Positions 4,778 to 21,970 of a stretch of 21,970 bases of DNA are shown here, in pieces. The DNA is taken from the sequence record NZ_CP014059.2. The stretch is one strand, 5' to 3'. The translations under genes and the position numbers were made by a program. The DNA is from a plasmid. The notes beneath the pieces were generated by a model. That model was not told where the DNA came from. It saw only the letters and a program-made list of their open reading frames with translations, and did not search any database. The first letter of the stretch is position 1. Every line of letters starts with the position of its first letter.

Positions 4778-5206
4778 ATGAAGCCGATGGGAACCCGATA
4801 CACCGATGAACTTGCCGCCTGGGCCGATCAGAAGGCCGAGAAGAAGCGCCGCCAGGACGCGGCGGCAGTAGCGTTTCTGGCGGTGCGCGGGGATGTGGTC
4901 GAGGCAATGGAAGCCGGCTACGCGCTGACGACGATCTACGATCACATGCACGAAACCGGCCGGGTGAAAACCAGCTATGAGACGTTCCGCCGGCACGTCC
5001 AGCGGTTCATCAAGGCAGCGCCGGCCGACACCGCGCCGCCGACACCGAAGGCCGCCACCAGGTCGGCCAGCAACTCGCCGACCACCGTTCCAGCCGTCAC
5101 GCCAAAGCCGGCCGTATCAGCTCCGGCCAGCCCTGCCAGCGAGCAAGCCGGGAAGATTCCCAGCTTCAATTTCAACCCGACGCCGAACAAAGAGGACTTG
5201 CTGTAA
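4778..5206 (+). CDS. traK: TraK oriT-binding/bending protein (142 aa)
   Basis: YTDELAAWADQKAEKKRRQDAAAVAFLAVRGDV...SYETFRRHVQRFIKA...FNFNPTPNKEDLL matches RP4 TraK. Confidence 0.9.
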   Translation: MKPMGTRYTDELAAWADQKAEKKRRQDAAAVAFLAVRGDVVEAMEAGYALTTIYDHMHETGRVKTSYETFRRHVQRFIKAAPADTAPPTPKAATRSASNSPTTVPAVTPKPAVSAPASPASEQAGKIPSFNFNPTPNKEDLL

Positions 5207-5240
5207 GCCGCCCCTGATGGGGGGATGAACACCAAGGGAA

Positions 5241-5414
5241 GACAGTCGGCCGGCCCCTCAAGTGTCAATAACCCCATGACGTGAAATCGCCCCCCCCCCT
5301 GCGCCGCCCACCGGCCAACAGATCAGGACGGCCAAACCTGGCCGCTAGGGGCAGGCCCGCGCCCCTCAAATGTCAATATCCGGGCCTCCCCCGAGTTCGT
5401 GAAATCGCCCCCCC
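5241..5414. repeat. Two imperfect direct-repeat units of about 60 bp, each made of a TrfA-type iteron (5253-5267 GCCCCTCAAGTGTCA; 5361-5375 GCCCCTCAAATGTCA) plus CGTGAAATCG and a C tract (C10 at 5290-5299; C7 at 5407-5413)
   Basis: The iterons are the reverse complement of the IncP-1 oriV iteron consensus TGACA(C/G)TTGAGGGGC. No trfA gene is present in the window. Confidence 0.75.
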
Positions 5415-5425
5415 TGGTGGGCCGG

Positions 5426-6346
5426 TCACTCGCCGCCTGGCTTCTTCCTGGTCGCAGGCTTCGCCTCGGCCGCCGGCGGCGTGATACGGGCCAGCAGCGC
5501 GGCAGATTGCTCCTTGAGCGTGTCGAGTTGCCCCGCCATGCGGGCAGCTTCCTCACGAGCCTGCGCGGTGGCCTTCGCGGCCTGATCGCGCTCGGCCTGC
5601 GCTGCCGTCAAGCGTTCTGCCATACGCTGCGCCTCGACCGCTGCGGCCTTCCGCTGCTCCTGGTGCGCTTCGCGCTCGGCATCGGCCTTGGCGCGGACGG
5701 TCGCCAGTTCCTCGCGCACCTGGTCAAGTTGAGCGGCGACAGCCTGGCCGGCTTTCTGCTGGTCGGCCAGCGCCCGGCGTGCTTGGTCTGCGTCCTCGTG
5801 GGCGCGGTCAAGTTCGGTGCGCAGCTCGCCGGCCCTGGCCTCGGCCGTGGCGGCCCGCTCACTGGCCGCTGCCAGCTCTTGGCGAACGGCGGTGAGTTCC
5901 TGGGCCAACTTTTCGGCGGCGGCCTTCTCAGCGGTCAGCTCGGCCGTGGTCGCCTCCAGCTCGCCGGCCTGGCGCTCGAAAGCCTCGGCCAGCTCCTGCC
6001 GCATCGCGTCCAGCTCGGCCCGCTCTGTTTCCCATGCGGCCTGTGCGCTGCGCAGGGATTCGTTCGCCAGCTCCTGGGCCTGCTGCCAGATCGTCGCCAC
6101 GGCGGCGCTGCTGGCCTGCTGCACGACCTCCGGCACCGCCACGGCCACCGGGGCGGCCTGGGCAGTCTGCGCCCTGCGCCATTCCTTCATCACGGCGCTG
6201 GCTGCGTTCATATCTACGCGGGCGGCCCGGCGCACCGCATCGACCGTGGGCATCGTCTCGCGGCCCGACTGCTCGAAAAGATCAGTGGCGGCGGCAATGA
6301 TGCGCTCGCGCACGTCGGCGGGGATTTGGGGGGCTTGCGGTGTCAT
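5426..6346 (-). CDS. kfrA: KfrA-like alanine-rich coiled-coil DNA-binding protein (about 306 aa from the ATG at 6346)
   Basis: Long Ala/Glu/Gln/Arg-rich coiled coil. The N-terminal wHTH-like segment is VDAVRRAARVDMNAASAVMKEWRR. It is convergent with traK, as in IncP-1. An autoregulatory palindrome lies upstream. Confidence 0.8.
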   Translation of the reverse strand: MTPQAPQIPADVRERIIAAATDLFEQSGRETMPTVDAVRRAARVDMNAASAVMKEWRRAQTAQAAPVAVAVPEVVQQASSAAVATIWQQAQELANESLRSAQAAWETERAELDAMRQELAEAFERQAGELEATTAELTAEKAAAEKLAQELTAVRQELAAASERAATAEARAGELRTELDRAHEDADQARRALADQQKAGQAVAAQLDQVREELATVRAKADAEREAHQEQRKAAAVEAQRMAERLTAAQAERDQAAKATAQAREEAARMAGQLDTLKEQSAALLARITPPAAEAKPATRKKPGGE

Positions 6347-6368
6347 GGCATCGGCTCCGGTGGATAAG

Positions 6369-6399
6369 ATAAGAAGAATAATATTATTATTCTTCTTAT
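6369..6399. promoter_or_regulatory. Perfect 31-bp palindrome ATAAGAAGAATAATA-T-TATTATTCTTCTTAT in a nearly 100% A+T island; putative KfrA operator / kfrA promoter
   Basis: The 15-1-15 palindrome lies 23-53 bp upstream of the kfrA ATG. GATAA repeats and a GGTGGATAA DnaA-box-like motif (6359-6367) flank it. Confidence 0.7.
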
Positions 6400-6624
6400 T
6401 ATGCAAGCCATTATTTTCCGCATGGCCTGGATCAGCCCGGCCGGGAGCGCGTCGGGGGTCGAAATTCGGGCCTGGGCGGGCCGTGGCGGCGTTTTCCAGG
6501 GTTGGCGGCACTATCCCCTACCCTCGCCCGGTTTCGGGCGTCCTGGGCGTTTCTACGCGGCCGATCTCCGGCGCAAACGAAAAAAGCCAGACCACGGCCG
6601 GCCTGGCTTCCCCTTGGCGTCAGA

Positions 6625-6637
6625 TTTAGCGGCTAAA
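6625..6637. promoter_or_regulatory. KorB operator (OB) TTTAGCGGCTAAA
   Basis: Exact OB consensus. It lies about 280 bp upstream of the kfrA start and immediately 3' of the small gene 6640..6948. Confidence 0.8.
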
Positions 6638-6949: not shown

Positions 6950-7280
6950 ACAACACCCCGGCGAGCTGGACGAGGGAGCCGCCCTTCGGGCGGCGGGCTA
7001 CTCCGGGCCTTCGGCCCCTCCGCGCCGTTCCGGCGCTGCGCGGCCCGTGGATAACTTGCAAGCAAGTTACCCACCGCCCTTGCCGGCTACTCGCGTTATA
7101 TAAACGCAGGGGGCTACTCCGGCCTACGGCCGAGGCGGACAAGCCGCTAGGCTTCGCCATTAGTAATACGGACGGACTTGTCTCAAGCATTGTGGCCGCC
7201 CTCGTCACTTCCGGCGATGCTGGCCAGGTCGGCCGCCTGGGCCTGTAATACGGATGGACTTGTCTCACTCGCCGGCGCGG
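6950..7280. other. Candidate vegetative origin (oriV) / rep-proximal repeat region
   Basis: It contains a UUCG-loop hairpin at 6978-6994. It has a 21-22-bp direct repeat GGGCTACTCCGG(G)CCT(T/A)CGGCC at 6995-7016 and 7111-7131. A DnaA-box-like cGTGGATAA sits at 7046-7054, next to the palindrome TAACTTGCAAGCAAGTTA at 7052-7069. An A+T palindrome GCGTTATATAAACGC is at 7093-7107. A 23-bp direct repeat GTAATACGGA(C/T)GGACTTGTCTCA at 7163-7185 and 7245-7267 overlaps the 3' end of rep. Confidence 0.4.
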
Positions 7281-8565
7281 CTGGCTTGCCAGCTCGATAC
7301 CAGCTCGCCCGGCTCATACCGAGGGCTTCCCAAGGCTTCTGCCGGCTCAAGGAGCGGCTTTCGTAGGTTTGCCGATCTACCGCCCCAGCAGCCCGCCGGC
7401 GGGCCGTGTGGCGCTCTCTGTCGCGCTCCTTCGCCATATCCGAGCTGATGAGCGTGCGGAGCTTGCGCTGTTCCTCGTCGGTGATCTGGAACAGGCTGAT
7501 GATGGTGTCGTTCTTGGGCGTGTAGAGCGGGGAAAGCTGCTTGCCGCCGAACTCCACTTTCTCGCCGGCCTCGTGCGCCTTTGCCTTGGCGTACAACGTC
7601 ATCAGCTCCTTGGAGCGATACGACCAGGCCGGATCAAGCTCGCCGGCCAGCGCGGCCGCCTCGTGGTACATCTGCCCGCTGTGCGTAGCACCAGACAGCA
7701 GCAGGAAGTTGAGACGCCAGAAAAGATGCTGCATCCGCTCGCCTTCCCTGACGCCACCGCGCAGCTCGGCCAGCTTGCGCAAGTCCTCCAGGCGATCCCA
7801 TGCGAGCTGCCGACCGGAGAAGCCGCGCAGGTTGTCGGCCTTGCCGCCTGGCAATAGCTTGAGCTGCCGGCGTTCGGCACGGTCGCGGCGTTGCTGCTCG
7901 ATGTCCCAGCGGGCTACTGGCAGCAGCATTTCAGCCAGGTACTCGAAACCGTAGCGGACGGGCTGGCCGTCCTGGCCGTGCTCGACATGCACCACGCGGC
8001 ACACATCGCCGCTCTTGGTATTCACGGTGCTGACCAGGCGCAGCACGCGGCTTGCGTCCTTGGCCTGGGGGTCGGCGCCGAGGCCGGCCAGGCGATCGAC
8101 AAGATACCGCTGGCAGGCGTTCCAGCGCGGCAGCGCCTGGCGCGGCAAGGTGCCGTCCAGCAGCCACTTGGCTTGTATGCCGCGGCCGCTATAGACCAGC
8201 AGCGAGGGCGTGGGGATGCCTTCCTGGGCGCAGTGGTACAGCACGGTGGCCGCCAGTTGCTCCGGCGTCCTGCCGGTGGCCCACGGCTGCCGGTAGGTGT
8301 CCAGGTCGGCGAACAGCAGCCCGACACGCGCCAGATTCACCACGCGCCGGTTAGGGCGCATGAACTCGGCCTGCGTCAGCCAGGTGTCGCGGGTCTGATC
8401 GACCATGCCCAAGATCGTGGGCATGTCTGTGAGCCTGTATGAGTCTTGCCGCTTGTCCTTCCCTACCGCGACCAGGAGCGAGAAAAAGCCCGTCCTGGCC
8501 GTGTCATGGTAGGTGCCGGCCTCGTCGGCCGGCTCGAACAAGGCAAGTTGTGCCTGTCCTGCCAT
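7183..8565 (-). CDS. Replication initiator with archaeo-eukaryotic primase-polymerase (PrimPol) motifs (about 460 aa from the ATG at 8565); not TrfA
   Basis: PrimPol motif I is VGLLFADLD, motif II is YSGRGIQAKWLL and motif III is VLRLVSTVNTKSGDVCRVV. N-terminal QLALF resembles the QL[SD]LF beta-clamp motif. An AAGGGG Shine-Dalgarno lies upstream. The promoter region carries a KorA operator. Confidence 0.6.
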   Translation of the reverse strand: MAGQAQLALFEPADEAGTYHDTARTGFFSLLVAVGKDKRQDSYRLTDMPTILGMVDQTRDTWLTQAEFMRPNRRVVNLARVGLLFADLDTYRQPWATGRTPEQLAATVLYHCAQEGIPTPSLLVYSGRGIQAKWLLDGTLPRQALPRWNACQRYLVDRLAGLGADPQAKDASRVLRLVSTVNTKSGDVCRVVHVEHGQDGQPVRYGFEYLAEMLLPVARWDIEQQRRDRAERRQLKLLPGGKADNLRGFSGRQLAWDRLEDLRKLAELRGGVREGERMQHLFWRLNFLLLSGATHSGQMYHEAAALAGELDPAWSYRSKELMTLYAKAKAHEAGEKVEFGGKQLSPLYTPKNDTIISLFQITDEEQRKLRTLISSDMAKERDRERHTARRRAAGAVDRQTYESRSLSRQKPWEALGMSRASWYRAGKPAAPASETSPSVLQAQAADLASIAGSDEGGHNA

Positions 8566-8630: not shown

Positions 8631-8642
8631 GTTTAGCTAAAC
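8631..8642. promoter_or_regulatory. KorA operator (OA) GTTTAGCTAAAC in the rep promoter region, flanked by 10-bp inverted repeats GAATGAGGTT (8624-8633) / AACCTCATTC (8668-8677)
   Basis: Exact 12-bp IncP-1 OA consensus, 66-77 bp upstream of the rep ATG. No korA gene is present in the window. Confidence 0.8.
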
Positions 8643-10124: not shown

Positions 10125-10192
10125 CCCTATCTAGCTGCTAGGTAGCAACGATTATAAGATAGAAGCTAGATACAAGATAGTAGCTAGATAGA
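10125..10192. repeat. Centromere/operator-like array upstream of parA: CTAGCTGCTAG, then repeated AGATAG and CTAGATA units
   Basis: Clustered short direct repeats lie between the parA start (10116) and the KorB operator. A TATAAT -10 (10151-10156, minus strand) is embedded in them. Confidence 0.5.
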
Positions 10193-10193
10193 T

Positions 10194-10206
10194 TTTAGCC
10201 GCTAAA
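10194..10206. promoter_or_regulatory. KorB operator (OB) TTTAGCCGCTAAA
   Basis: Exact consensus. It overlaps the resolvase stop codon and lies 78 bp upstream of the parA start. Confidence 0.8.
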
Positions 10207-12340: not shown

Positions 12341-13297
12341 ATGTCAAAGCGACTTCCCCTCGTGGCCCTCGTGAGCTACCCGCACTTCAGCCCGTTTCAC
12401 TTTGGCGTGCCGTTCTTGATCTTCAGTGCGCAGTTGCCCGAGCAGGCGCTGTTCGATCTGAAGATCGTCACGCCAGGCGGCACCGCGCTGGCGGCCGAGC
12501 GGGCCTTGTTCGTCCAACCCGATGGCGGGCTGGAGTTGCTGGCCAAGGCTGACATCGTCGTGATCCCCGGTTGGCATGATCTGGCCGAGCGTCCTGAGCC
12601 CGAGCTGATAGCCGCCTTGCGCCAGGCCCGCCAGCGGGGTGCCCATGTGGTGGGGCTGTGCTACGGCGCGTATGTCCTCGCCTATGCGGGCTTGCTGGAT
12701 GGCAAACGCGCATCCACACACTGGATGGCGGAGCAGGATTTCAAGCTGCGCTTTCCGCAAGTGCAACTGGACATGAATGCGCTGTATGTCGATGACGATG
12801 GCCTGATCACATCGGCGGGAACAGGGGCGGGCCTGGACTGCTGCCTCTACATCGTGCGCAAGTTCTACGGCCAGAAAACGGCCAACAAAGTCGCCCGGAT
12901 GATGGTGGTGCCGCCTCACCGCGAAGGAGGACAGGCTCAGTTCATTGAACAGCCGCTTGCCCCTTCCACGCAAGATGCCAGGATCAATCAGTTGCTGGAC
13001 CATTTGCGCCAGCACCTGAACCAGGTCCACTCGGTCGATGCGCTGGCCCAACGCGCCGCCATGAGCCGGCGCACGTTCACGCGCCACTTCAGCAAGGCGA
13101 CCGGCATGTCGTTGGGAGACTGGCTCATCAACGAACGCCTGCAGCGGACCCGAGAGCTGCTGGAAAGCACCACCTTGCCGGTGGAAGCCATCTCTGACCT
13201 GGTCGGATTTCAGAACCCGACCTCGCTGCGTCAGCACTTCAAGCGCAGAAACCAGGTCAGTCCCAGTGAATGGCGAAGAACCTTTGGGCGCGCGTGA
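12341..13297 (+). CDS. GlxA/FtrA-type transcriptional regulator: DJ-1/PfpI (class I glutamine amidotransferase-like) domain plus C-terminal AraC HTH (318 aa)
   Basis: AGGAG Shine-Dalgarno 5 nt upstream of ATG 12341. Nucleophile elbow VGLCYGAY. C-terminal AraC-type HTH. The long upstream ORF extension (from 12011) is rejected. Confidence 0.75.
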   Translation: MSKRLPLVALVSYPHFSPFHFGVPFLIFSAQLPEQALFDLKIVTPGGTALAAERALFVQPDGGLELLAKADIVVIPGWHDLAERPEPELIAALRQARQRGAHVVGLCYGAYVLAYAGLLDGKRASTHWMAEQDFKLRFPQVQLDMNALYVDDDGLITSAGTGAGLDCCLYIVRKFYGQKTANKVARMMVVPPHREGGQAQFIEQPLAPSTQDARINQLLDHLRQHLNQVHSVDALAQRAAMSRRTFTRHFSKATGMSLGDWLINERLQRTRELLESTTLPVEAISDLVGFQNPTSLRQHFKRRNQVSPSEWRRTFGRA

Positions 13298-13513
13298 GCT
13301 TTGTCTGCTCCGGGCGGGACAGCGTCATCCAGCTACCTGCGCCACTGACTCAGCCTTGTCCAGCCGGCCGCGCCGCACGAACAGACTGACCAGCCGTTGA
13401 CGGATCGCCACCTGGAGTTCCGCCAGTTGTTCCGGCGTGATGCGAATTTCACCCGCTCGACGAGCGCAACACCGGCGCCGCCTACGCCAAGAACCGGCGA
13501 ATCGAACTCAAAC

Positions 13514-14368
13514 TCACGAACCGCTGAGCGCCGCGTCACCGCGCTGCTGCGCCAGCCAGTCGCGCGGGGCGCAGCCCATGCGCACGCGGAAGGCGCGCGC
13601 CAGAGCGTTCGGGCTGCCGTAGCCGACGCGGTCGGCCACCACCGCCACCGGCCGCCCCTGCTTGAGCAGGGTGCAACTGACGTTCATCCGCCAGTCGGCC
13701 AGATAGTCGCCCGGCGTGACGCCCACCGCGTCCTTGAACGCGGCGGCGAAGCGCGCGCGTGACATGCCCGCCTTCGCCGCCAGCGCCTCGAGCGACCACG
13801 CGGTCTGCGGCGCATCGTGCATGGCGGTTATGGCGCGCGCGAGTTTCGGGTCGGCCAGGCCCGCCAGCAGTCCGGTGGCGCCAAGCCGCCCATCCATCAG
13901 ATAACGCAGCAACTGGATCAGTAGCAACTCGCACAAGCGGTCGATGGCGGCCTGCCGACCGCACTGGTCGCGCTCGGCTTCGGCAAACAGCAACTCTAGC
14001 GTCGGCCCGAGGCCGGGCAAGTCCGCCAACGGAATCAGCAGCATCGACGGCAAGGCCATGGCCAACGGATTGCCCGTCGAAGCGCCCAGGTCGACCTCCG
14101 CACACAACTGCTCAGCGGTATCGCCGGGGGCGGCGACAAAACGATGCGACGCCACGCGCGGATAAAACAGCAGGCTCGGCTCGGTAACCAGCAGATCTTC
14201 ATGCACGGGCGAACGCGCCGTAATCGGGCCGCGCCGCACCAGATGGATATAGCCATGCGGCGCCGCGTAATGATGCTGCCCACAGAAGGCGCCGCTGTGA
14301 AAAACGCGCGCCGAAAGCGAGTAGTGCCGGAGCAAGCCGGCCAGTCGATCCGCCATTCCACTCTCCAT
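13514..14368 (-). CDS. AraC-family transcriptional regulator (N-terminal cupin-like domain plus C-terminal HTH); start 14368 or 14356
   Basis: C-terminal AraC HTH signature ..ARAFRVRMGCAPRDW... It is divergent from the AhpD-like / cyt P460 operon. Confidence 0.75.
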   Translation of the reverse strand: MESGMADRLAGLLRHYSLSARVFHSGAFCGQHHYAAPHGYIHLVRRGPITARSPVHEDLLVTEPSLLFYPRVASHRFVAAPGDTAEQLCAEVDLGASTGNPLAMALPSMLLIPLADLPGLGPTLELLFAEAERDQCGRQAAIDRLCELLLIQLLRYLMDGRLGATGLLAGLADPKLARAITAMHDAPQTAWSLEALAAKAGMSRARFAAAFKDAVGVTPGDYLADWRMNVSCTLLKQGRPVAVVADRVGYGSPNALARAFRVRMGCAPRDWLAQQRGDAALSGS

Positions 14369-14473
14369 ATAAGACGATAGGTTACGTATTTGATACTTTA
14401 CGTGCCATATCGTACCAAACAAAGGGCGATCATGCCCACGTGCTCTTGCACCTCACCCACTACGGAGATAGAC

Positions 14474-15007
14474 ATGACCCAAATCGCCCCCCTGACCATC
14501 GACACCGCTGACGCCGCTACCGCTGCCACACTCAAGGCCGTCAAAGCCAAGCTTGGCATGGTGCCGAACCTGTTCGCCACGCTGGCCCACGCGCCGGCGG
14601 CGCTCAATGGCTACCTCGGCTTGTCCGAAACGCTGGGCACCGGCCGCCTGAATGCCTCCCAGCGCGAGATCGTTGCGCTCGCTGCCGCTCAAGCCAATCG
14701 CTGCCAGTATTGCCTGAGCGCACACACCCTGATCGGCAAAGGTGCCGGACTGTCGGCAGAGGCCATCGCCGCGGCCCGCACCGGCCAGGCGGCCAACGCA
14801 CTTGACGATGCAATCGCCGGCTTTGCCCGCGCGCTGGTCGAGCAACGCGGCGTGGTGTCGGCCGACGCCATGGCCAACTACCGCCGCGCGGGGCTCGACG
14901 ACGGCCTGATACTGGAAGTGATCGCCAACGTCGCGCTGAACACGCTCACCAACTACACCAACCACATCGCCGACCCCACGGTGGATTTCCCCGTGGTCGC
15001 CGTCTGA
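14474..15007 (+). CDS. Carboxymuconolactone decarboxylase (CMD) / AhpD-like family protein (177 aa)
   Basis: GGAG Shine-Dalgarno 7 nt upstream of the ATG. CxxC..H core motif RCQYCLSAHT typical of AhpD/CMD. Confidence 0.7.
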   Translation: MTQIAPLTIDTADAATAATLKAVKAKLGMVPNLFATLAHAPAALNGYLGLSETLGTGRLNASQREIVALAAAQANRCQYCLSAHTLIGKGAGLSAEAIAAARTGQAANALDDAIAGFARALVEQRGVVSADAMANYRRAGLDDGLILEVIANVALNTLTNYTNHIADPTVDFPVVAV

Positions 15008-21220: not shown

Positions 21221-21970
21221 TCACGCCTCCGATTTACCGTGCTCGCGGTTGGCGAACGCGGCCACTTCGTCATCAGGATCGGCAGCAGCCGAATCGGCCC
21301 CTGCCAGGTTGTTGCCGCCGAATGTCGGCACCGCCTCGACAGCGGCGGCCTGGTCACTCTCCGCACTCGCCCTGATAGCCGCCGCGATCTTCCCGCCGGT
21401 GGTGTCAGCGATGCGTTCGGCGGCGGCGTCGCGCATGCTGGCGGCCTTGGCCTTCGCAACCTCGCCGACGCCTTGCATCAGGTTCGCGCCGGCGTCGGCC
21501 GTCACGCGGCCCGCCGTGCCAAGCGCCGATGCGGCCGAGGCCAGCAAGCCGGGGCCGGTGCTGCCTGGTGCGGCCTGCTGGCCGCCTTGCTGGGCTTTCT
21601 TGCTGCCGGCTTCGTCGCCACCCTTCGAGCTGGGACCTCCACCCGATTTACCGGGCTGCTGCCCATTGCTTCCACCCGAGCCGCTGGCACCGCTGCCCGA
21701 GCTGCTGCCGAAACCGGCGGCCTGTGCAAGTGGTGTAGTGGTGCCCGCACCTGAGCTTGACCCGCCACCAAAGCCAGCAGCTTGCGCAAACGAGCCTGCA
21801 TCGCTGCCGGGGTCGGAGCCGCCACCGAGCATGGGCATTCCGCCCGACTCGCCGCCGGCGCTCGATCCCGCTTTCTCGAACGCTGCCTTGATGGCCGACA
21901 TGCCGCCGGCGGCCGAGGTTGCACCACCCATCACGGCCGCACCGGCTACGCTTGCCGCACCAGCGGCCAT
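21221..21970 (-). CDS. trbL: C-terminal Gly/Ala/Ser-rich low-complexity part of TrbL (249 codons), continuous with 1..912 if the molecule is circular
   Basis: The ORF reaches the right edge of the window in a phase that joins the codon ending at position 1. The low-complexity composition continues seamlessly (..GAAIGAAMGAAS + MAAGAASVAGAAVMGG..). Combined length is 554 codons, about the size of IncP-1 TrbL. Confidence 0.65.
   Translation of the reverse strand: MAAGAASVAGAAVMGGATSAAGGMSAIKAAFEKAGSSAGGESGGMPMLGGGSDPGSDAGSFAQAAGFGGGSSSGAGTTTPLAQAAGFGSSSGSGASGSGGSNGQQPGKSGGGPSSKGGDEAGSKKAQQGGQQAAPGSTGPGLLASAASALGTAGRVTADAGANLMQGVGEVAKAKAASMRDAAAERIADTTGGKIAAAIRASAESDQAAAVEAVPTFGGNNLAGADSAAADPDDEVAAFANREHGKSEA

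Follow-up and report, generated by a model that had tools for sequence, protein, structure and literature searches.

Why would a plasmid keep binding sites for a replication initiator that it does not encode? The question is raised by the short gap between the convergent genes traK and kfrA on a plasmid sequence of 21,970 nucleotides (record NZ_CP014059.2), the whole of which is called the window here. The gap contains two copies of a 17-bp repeat, or iteron, of the TrfA type found in the replication origin (oriV) of IncP-1 plasmids, and each copy is followed by a second motif that runs into a stretch of C residues. A first-pass annotation of the window had described two near-exact IncP-1 oriV iterons 108 bp apart, each followed by CGTGAAATCG and a C run (C10, then C7). 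This description is accurate: the iterons are exact relative to R751 and p2-T1, and the C runs are present in the sequence. The features of the gap are as follows:

5207-5425, no strand: the convergent traK/kfrA intergenic gap, 219 bp, type B (defined below), holding both composite units.

5253-5269, plus strand: TrfA-type (IncP-1) iteron 1, GCCCCTCAAGTGTCAAT, identical in 17/17 bases to the oriV iteron of R751 (9700) and of p2-T1 (23847).

5280-5299, plus strand: RepA_C-type iteron 1, CGTGAAATCG followed by C10, a motif match to RepA_C oriV arrays.

5361-5377, plus strand: TrfA-type iteron 2, GCCCCTCAAATGTCAAT, with A at position 10, to be compared with the trfA-proximal iteron of R751 and p2-T1.

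5398-5414, plus strand: RepA_C-type iteron 2, CGTGAAATCG followed by C7, with flanks (GTTCGTGAAATCGC..TGG) like those of the CP014066.2 oriV copies.

Judged by their letters, both 17-mers are true IncP-1 iterons and predicted TrfA sites. Their 15-nt cores, GCCCCTCAAGTGTCA at 5253-5267 and GCCCCTCAAATGTCA at 5361-5375, are both on the plus strand with a start-to-start distance of 108 bp, and the core match is prolonged to 17 nt (..AAT). The two copies agree with the 17-bp consensus of IncP-1 oriV, copy 1 over 17 nt and copy 2 over 16. In R751, GCCCCTCAAGTGTCA occurs exactly at three oriV positions and six more copies with 1-2 mismatches lie in two clusters, while GCCCCTCAAATGTCA is the isolated iteron adjoining trfA. 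The first 16 nt of iteron 2 (GCCCCTCAAATGTCAA) are those of this isolated, trfA-proximal iteron in both R751 (14947) and p2-T1 (24401). All ten sites of R751 recur in the IncP-1beta plasmid p2-T1, where their consensus is GCCCCTCAAGTGTCA(A) and variation falls mainly at positions 9, 10, 16 and 17. Position 10 of iteron 2, which is A in the window and G in relatives, varies among genuine oriV iterons too. When the 17-mer was sought with at most one mismatch, 2 copies were found in the window and 0 in 100 dinucleotide shuffles, so that no copy is expected by chance. Besides the two units, the window contains no further copy of either the TrfA-type or the CGTGAAATCG motif.

These iterons are orphans. 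When the ends of the window are joined, an intact trbL open reading frame is restored whose product is identical at 553/553 residues to TrbL of p3-T1, and the window is therefore a closed circle of 21,970 bp. A tblastn search with R751 TrfA gives zero matches in this circle, and trfA was also not found in five complete relatives or in the first 50 kb of p3-T1. The absence of trfA, which had been proposed from the first pass, thus extends to the whole replicon and is what makes the iterons orphan. The genes that bear on this point are:

1-930 and 21221-21970: trbL, split over the two ends of the window and recognised by end joining.

4778-5206, plus strand: traK (DUF5338), 46% amino-acid identity to R751 TraK.

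5426-6346, minus strand: kfrA (KfrA_N domain), with an iteron pair after its 3' end in every relative examined.

7183-8565, minus strand: the plasmid's own initiator gene, rep, 460 aa, putatively of the ColE2-Rep-like primase type and neither TrfA nor RepA_C.

From its gene content, the window is a mobilisable plasmid of the pMATVIM-7 family, predicted to be mobilised by IncP-1 plasmids. Its transfer part consists of an IncP-type oriT with traJ, traI and traK, plus trbJKL. The proteins related to IncP-1 are TraI, TraJ, TraK, TrbJ, TrbK, TrbL and the C-terminal part of KfrA, with 46-77% amino-acid identity to R751, and comparison with the R751 proteins shows that none of TrfA, KorA, KorB, KorC and TrbA is encoded in the window. 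The trfA-oriV replicon and the korA-incC-korB central control region that define an IncP-1 plasmid are both missing, and the MOB-suite label 'IncP' tracks the 460-aa rep gene, which is unrelated to trfA. The closest relatives are p3-T1 of Acidovorax sp. T1, which is 100% identical across 85% of the window, and pLH3.4 of Xanthomonas perforans.

The window Rep was also considered as a divergent TrfA or RepA_C, and this was ruled out since BLASTP similarity to either is nil. Pfam and NCBIfam assign the protein to no family. Its profile matches are to the PHROG families 'replication protein' (6e-14) and 'DNA polymerase/primase' (2.5e-5), with weaker matches to PDB 3vw4 (chain named 'Rep', 0.011), which we take to be the DNA-binding domain of ColE2-P9 Rep, and to the PrimPol AEP domain (0.11); an HTH_23 domain is present in the 491-aa orthologues. 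These matches suggest a weak but concordant similarity to prim-pol and ColE2-Rep proteins. This 'RepA' of the family resembles a ColE2-type primase initiator, with a prim-pol-like region at the N-terminus and a helix-turn-helix at the C-terminus. Neither iterons nor an origin were found near repA in the pMATVIM-7/pPE52IMP family, which is also without parB (PMC9501424). An initiator of the ColE2-like type uses no iterons, which fits this remark; it would explain why the pMATVIM-7 family shows no iteron origin, and it would leave the iterons in the gap without a cognate initiator on the plasmid.

Comparison with relatives shows that the TrfA-type 17-mers go with the 3' end of kfrA and not with traK, as they are also found in MOBQ plasmids that have no traK. 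The arrangement after kfrA is either 1-3 copies in direct orientation or an inverted pair with 16-92 bp between its members. In the type A gap, read in the direction of kfrA, the kfrA stop is followed by an iteron, 16 nt, an inverted iteron, 4 nt and TTTAGCCGCTAAA; this gap is seen in pMATVIM-7, CP014066.2 and several genome contigs. In pNOR-2000 and its relatives, which have a Ti-type MOBQ relaxase and no traK, the iteron pair after kfrA is 75-92 bp apart and a canonical terminator lies between the two copies. When this region of the pNOR-type plasmids is aligned, the iterons and the adjoining TTTAGCCGCTAAA stand out as invariant islands in an unalignable spacer. In X. citri and Alcaligenes plasmids (L023 and L024 are among these loci), the kfrA-proximal iteron is located inside the last codons of kfrA itself. 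A TraK-based scan of genome contigs returned 9 loci, all of type A or true IncP-1 with traL, and so broadened the set little. Across the whole set, the initiators that accompany the kfrA-linked 17-mers are of three unrelated kinds (RepA_C, 'replication initiator protein A' and the 460-491-aa Rep), and both relaxase types, MOBP and MOBQ, are represented. Spacing (16-108 bp), orientation and copy number (1-3) shift and the spacers cannot be aligned, and through all of this the sites remain exact.

In most relatives, the kfrA-distal iteron is also 4-6 bp from an exact KorB operator, or O_B (ATTGACACTTGAGGGGC-N4-6-TTTAGCCGCTAAA), and the composite of iteron and O_B (L007 13181-13263; L020 2847-2976; L021-L024) is the best-conserved block downstream of kfrA. 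The type B gap of the window, which combines direct repeats with RepA_C-type iterons, has lost the iteron-adjacent O_B. It is the rarer arrangement, with only 10 records in PLSDB.

The first-pass annotation treated the gap as a tandem unit, and this is correct in part. A clean duplication is not what the sequence holds: the spacer from the TrfA-type motif to the CGTGAAATCG motif is 12 bp in unit 1 and 22 bp in unit 2, a repeat search returns two families with periods of 108 and 118 bp, the units share only their motif cores, and Tandem Repeats Finder (TRF) reports no tandem array in the gap. What stands is the repetition of the unit among relatives. In a metagenome scan, type B gaps were found with one unit (L029), two (L031, L035 and L037) and three (L036/L032), and in the three-unit version units 1 and 2 are near-identical. 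With one, two and three units on record, the gap behaves as an expandable array. Two further metagenome matches (L030 and L038) were discarded as AT-rich chance matches. In addition, one metagenome contig (L033, ERZ1645187 NODE-2369) has two tandem kfrA copies at 12900-14810 in reverse complement, followed in one case by a type A gap and in the other by a type B gap with a truncated first TrfA iteron. This contig is either a recombinant of the two plasmid types or an assembly chimera.

The TrfA-type sites are selectively conserved islands in divergent DNA. Across the seven two-unit gaps, 32/34 columns of the TrfA iterons are invariant, compared with 23/32 for the RepA_C iterons and 77/155 for the remainder (Fisher p = 3.5e-7, TrfA iterons, and 0.017), although these statistics represent ~4-5 independent lineages and the alignment columns are not phylogenetically independent. 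Iteron 1 is unchanged throughout the 7 two-unit relatives. Variation within the iterons is confined to positions 6 and 10, and the replacement bases are also found in R751 and p2-T1 iterons. Further support came from the most divergent complete plasmid, that of X. cucurbitae, where 33/34 iteron columns are identical to the window versus 101/154 elsewhere (p = 4.7e-5). The RepA_C-type sites are less well conserved than the TrfA-type sites.

The conservation bears directly on the simplest alternative, which is that the gap is a neutral relic: a recombination scar in which pieces of two oriVs, one IncP-1 and one RepA_C, are left over and the sites are unused. Several observations are in keeping with a scar. 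The gap stands in the place of traL, traM, kfrC and kfrB of R751, as had been recognised from the start, and the window kfrA is a mosaic of two lineages, with a 3' half like the CP014066.2/pMATVIM-7 type and a 5' half like the pNOR-2000 type; the palindrome AATAAGAAGAATAATAATATTATTCTTCTTAT in its promoter (6347-6440) is also pNOR-2000-like. The tandem kfrA copies and truncated type B unit of L033 imply that recombination is frequent here, some lineages show decay of the RepA_C-type motif (to C4-C5, or by deletion in L035 and L037), and the kfrA-proximal iteron is degenerate in L021 and L022. However, the iteron columns are conserved far above their surroundings, the tolerated variants are exactly those of working oriVs, and the sites outlast changes in orientation, number, spacing, initiator and relaxase between spacers that cannot be aligned. 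Inheritance from the kfrA/traK neighbourhood of IncP-1 is ruled out by R751, which has no iteron near kfrA or traK-traM and hence offers no source there for such a scar. We consider an unused relic to be unlikely.

If the sites are used, the next issue is what binds them. To our knowledge, TrfA is the sole known binder of these 17-mers, and TrfA supplied in trans is favoured because it is the only candidate with a known matching specificity. The alternative is that the binder is KfrA, another backbone protein or a host factor, and that the IncP-1 match reflects a shared ancestry of the sites. Such a protein would account for the position of the sites, which are always beside the 3' end of kfrA and inside its coding end in L023 and L024, and the O_B located 4-6 bp from the distal iteron in most relatives does suggest a composite nucleoprotein site. 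KfrA was nevertheless rejected as the binder. The N-terminal DNA-binding part of KfrA falls into two classes that are 30% identical and have different operators at their own promoters, yet the same 17-mers accompany both; moreover, R751 KfrA is class-2-like and there are no such sites downstream of its gene. Apart from KfrA, no protein is common to all of the backbones. A binder other than TrfA is, in our view, improbable.

A role at the level of RNA is the least probable of the explanations and can hardly be credited. On this view, the repeats would either form hairpins that terminate the converging traK and kfrA transcripts or encode a small RNA. The window copies are direct repeats, the sites elsewhere are direct or inverted at very different spacings, and in pNOR-2000 ~90 bp, including a separate canonical terminator, lie between the arms. 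These features are at odds with a hairpin, even though the type A iterons, immediately behind the kfrA stop, make up a perfect inverted repeat of 17 bp and an imperfect inverted repeat (5345-5359 / 5381-5395) flanks iteron 2 of the window. No terminator-like or promoter pattern was detected in the gap, there is no Rfam match, and the fold energy equals that of shuffled sequence (z = 0.19 and 0.07 on the two strands).

TrfA binding could also mean initiation. The first-pass annotation allowed for a TrfA-dependent secondary origin, in which the gap would fire as a second oriV when a helper supplies TrfA in trans. The minimal RK2 oriV requires a cluster of five iterons, DnaA boxes and an AT-rich region. 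By comparison with a functional IncP-1-type oriV (at least 5 iterons at ~22 bp, DnaA boxes and an AT-rich region), the window gap has two iterons ~10 helical turns apart, as opposed to the 22-23 bp clusters of R751 and p2-T1; it is 63-73% GC with no AT-rich element, and no DnaA-box-like sequence is closer than 900 bp. The iterons are exact, and in the pNOR-2000 type an AT-rich stretch does lie on the GGGGC side of the distal iteron, with the same polarity as in R751 oriV. In addition, KorA from the helper could repress the satellite rep via the KorA operator described below, so that a switch of initiator is conceivable. Taken together, an auxiliary origin is very unlikely.

The second motif of each unit has an origin of its own. 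It had been regarded as an appendage of the TrfA-type unit, a view that has to be given up. Five copies of CGTGAAATCG-C7-C9 are located directly downstream of a RepA_C (PF04796) rep gene in Achromobacter xylosoxidans CP014066.2, in pNOR-2000 and in a Hydrogenophaga contig (L014), and in all three the arrays are interleaved with TTATCCAC DnaA boxes and then followed by an AT-rich stretch, the classic layout of an iteron origin. By this match, CGTGAAATCG-C(n) is an iteron of RepA_C-type replicons, to which sister plasmids such as pNOR-2000 belong, and the anatomy of the arrays suggests that the repeats are bound by RepA. The CGTGAAATCG core is matched exactly twice in the window, tblastn finds no RepA_C gene there, and the window Rep is unrelated. 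The window appears, then, to carry two kinds of foreign iteron next to each other, although the RepA_C-type iterons may in part be hitch-hikers of a recombination event. Slippage of the C tract, which the first pass had anticipated, is supported by run lengths of C4 to C11 among the gap copies of relatives and by one dimeric assembly, that of pLH3.4, with C10 in one gap copy and C11 in the other. That plasmid (L001, NZ_CP018473.1) was deposited as a head-to-tail dimer with a unit of ~19.4 kb, and the homopolymer is 11 long at 5335-5354 and 10 long at 24708-24726; the difference could be real slippage or a sequencing error.

The iterons are not the only IncP-1 sites on this plasmid. Exact operators for KorA (O_A) and KorB (O_B) are present as well:

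1947-1959, no strand: exact O_B (TTTAGCSGCTAAA), inside the 5' end of trbJ; R751 has it in the same frame and place.

6625-6637, no strand: exact O_B, upstream of kfrA.

8631-8642, no strand: exact O_A (GTTTAGCTAAAC), ~66 bp upstream of the rep start.

10194-10206, no strand: exact O_B, upstream of the promoter-like hexamers TTGTAT and TATAAT of parA (read by eye).

The operator motifs were validated on R751, where 9 (O_B) and 2 (O_A) exact occurrences are at known promoter regions; the shuffled window gave 0/100 matches. In the five complete relatives and the first 50 kb of p3-T1, korA and korB were not found and exact O_A and O_B are kept within divergent flanks. The same operator pattern is present in pNOR-2000, pMATVIM-7, CP014066.2 and the X. 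cucurbitae plasmid. With exact orphan operators for KorA and KorB also present, the iterons are one of several kinds of helper-protein site on the plasmid. Where the initiator is RepA_C or 'replication initiator protein A', the interval from the rep stop to the first oriV iteron contains an exact O_A (L007 15150-15161; L020 1009-1020; L021 1181; L022 1149). Between the window O_B at 10194-10206 and the parA start, at 10140-10190, there are two copies of an 18-bp direct repeat, AAGATAGAAGCTAGATAC, together with related CTAGATAG/CTATCT motifs; these are probably an operator or centromere of the plasmid's own ParA/ParC system.

A source of matching TrfA exists in at least one natural host. Acidovorax sp. 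T1 holds both p3-T1 and p2-T1, and the latter is a complete 79-kb IncP-1beta plasmid with ten iterons that contains trfA, ssb, trbA, the trb and tra operons, korA-incC-korB and kfrABC. The coexistence of the two plasmids means that any incompatibility is weak or mild. It argues against the strong incompatibility that had been thought possible, and handcuffing or titration is left as the best reading of the sites.

On balance, we lean towards the 17-mers being selected sites for the TrfA of a helper, acting in trans through titration or handcuffing. The plasmid would be a satellite of IncP-1 conjugative plasmids whose own replication needs no iterons and in which selection keeps them, and it is probably coupled to the co-resident IncP-1 helper. 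With a helper in the cell, its TrfA would bind the orphan iterons. The extra iterons would act negatively by titrating TrfA and by handcuffing with the helper oriV, and handcuffing would couple the satellite to the replication control of the helper, mildly lowering the helper copy number. The CGTGAAATCG-C(n) repeats would likewise be orphan sites, directed in their case at another foreign initiator, that of sister plasmids. Both the binding of TrfA in vivo and its effect are predictions, and they draw on RK2, where TrfA dimers act negatively via all iterons and loss of the isolated i1 or i10 approximately doubles copy number (PMC6961859). Given this negative action, a multicopy co-resident plasmid that brings in further iterons is expected to titrate TrfA and handcuff the helper oriV.

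Several points weigh against this reading. Each plasmid has just two sites, and their role is read from sequence identity, so that they are predicted sites; an unrecognised plasmid-encoded or host protein of the same specificity is a possible binder. To the small number of lineages behind the conservation statistics must be added the two divergent pNOR-type plasmids (L021 and L022) in which the kfrA-proximal iteron has 1-2 mismatches. Coexistence with p2-T1 is stable, and incompatibility is hence weak at most. Finally, the few records checked for Pseudomonas aeruginosa F010 and X. perforans LH3 gave no IncP-1 partner; with several family hosts showing no visible IncP-1 plasmid, the sites would often be idle.

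A wider version of this proposal takes in the operators, and we put it forward tentatively, as a possibility that falls somewhat short of an even chance. The window family and the pNOR-2000-type plasmids would be true satellites, wired into the IncP-1 control network by orphan cis sites: TrfA iterons after kfrA, O_A at the rep promoter or at the oriV edge, and O_B at the par and kfrA promoters and inside trbJ. Through the proteins of the helper, the satellite would sense a helper that arrives or is resident, turn its own replication and partition genes off or adjust them, and become handcuffed to the helper origin. It would thus be a counterpart of the phage satellites that read helper regulators, and by means of the RepA_C iterons the strategy would be directed at competing sister plasmids as well.

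An iteron is usually viewed as belonging to a single replicon. In the present case, iterons that agree perfectly with the consensus of one plasmid group are conserved on small, unrelated resistance and mobilisable plasmids, which need that group for their transfer, and these plasmids also have exact operators for the global repressors of the same helper. Should the sites be acted on by TrfA, KorA and KorB, replication and transcription control would be common to helper and satellite, with consequences for the copy number, stability and co-transfer of a family by which VIM, IMP and KPC carbapenemase genes are spread among Pseudomonas and Enterobacterales. Plasmid-curing vectors exploit the same principle, of which this would be a natural example. 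The class of iteron is itself known; what appears to be new is its presence on a heterologous satellite that naturally coexists with IncP-1. No description of the orphan iterons or operators was found in the searchable literature, and a mention in the original pMATVIM-7, pNOR-2000 and pAX22 papers is possible.

How do these sites compare with known systems? The backbone of the window is that of the pMATVIM-7/pPE52IMP family of MOBP11 mobilisable resistance plasmids. The gap of these plasmids is type A, with an inverted pair, whereas the window has the rarer type B and the added RepA_C-type iterons. With the RepA_C oriV (pNOR-2000, pAX22 and CP014066.2; MOB-suite rep_cluster_995), the window shares the CGTGAAATCG-C(7-9) motif together with some of the flanking sequence. 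It has two copies instead of five and is without the DnaA boxes, the AT-rich region and the RepA_C gene, and the C run is more variable in the gap copies (4 to 11) than in the RepA_C oriV arrays.

The IncP-1 oriV iterons of RK2/RP4 and R751 are identical to the window sites over 15-17 nt, including the natural G/A variant at position 10. However, the oriV iterons are clustered at a spacing of 22-23 bp, whereas the window has a mere pair, isolated and separated by 108 bp. The pair lies downstream of kfrA, its replicon is not of the IncP-1 type, and DnaA boxes, an AT-rich region and trfA in cis are lacking.

Rep-binding repeats placed away from the origin, which titrate or handcuff the initiator, are a feature of the inc loci incA of P1 and incC of F. 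Such repeats are also used in the curing vectors of the pCURE type (PMC6961859). In contrast to these loci and cassettes, the window arrangement is natural, of low dose and compatible with a target plasmid that stably coexists, and the cognate initiator of its sites is encoded by another plasmid.

The closest likeness in how the sites would work is to i1 and i10 of RK2, which are single, negative iterons outside the minimal origin. Copy 2 of the window is the R751 i1-type variant, and the inverted iteron pair of the type A relatives recalls i1 and i10, which are mutually inverted. The difference is that i1 and i10 control, in cis, the plasmid on which they lie, while the sites in the window are on another plasmid and would act in trans.

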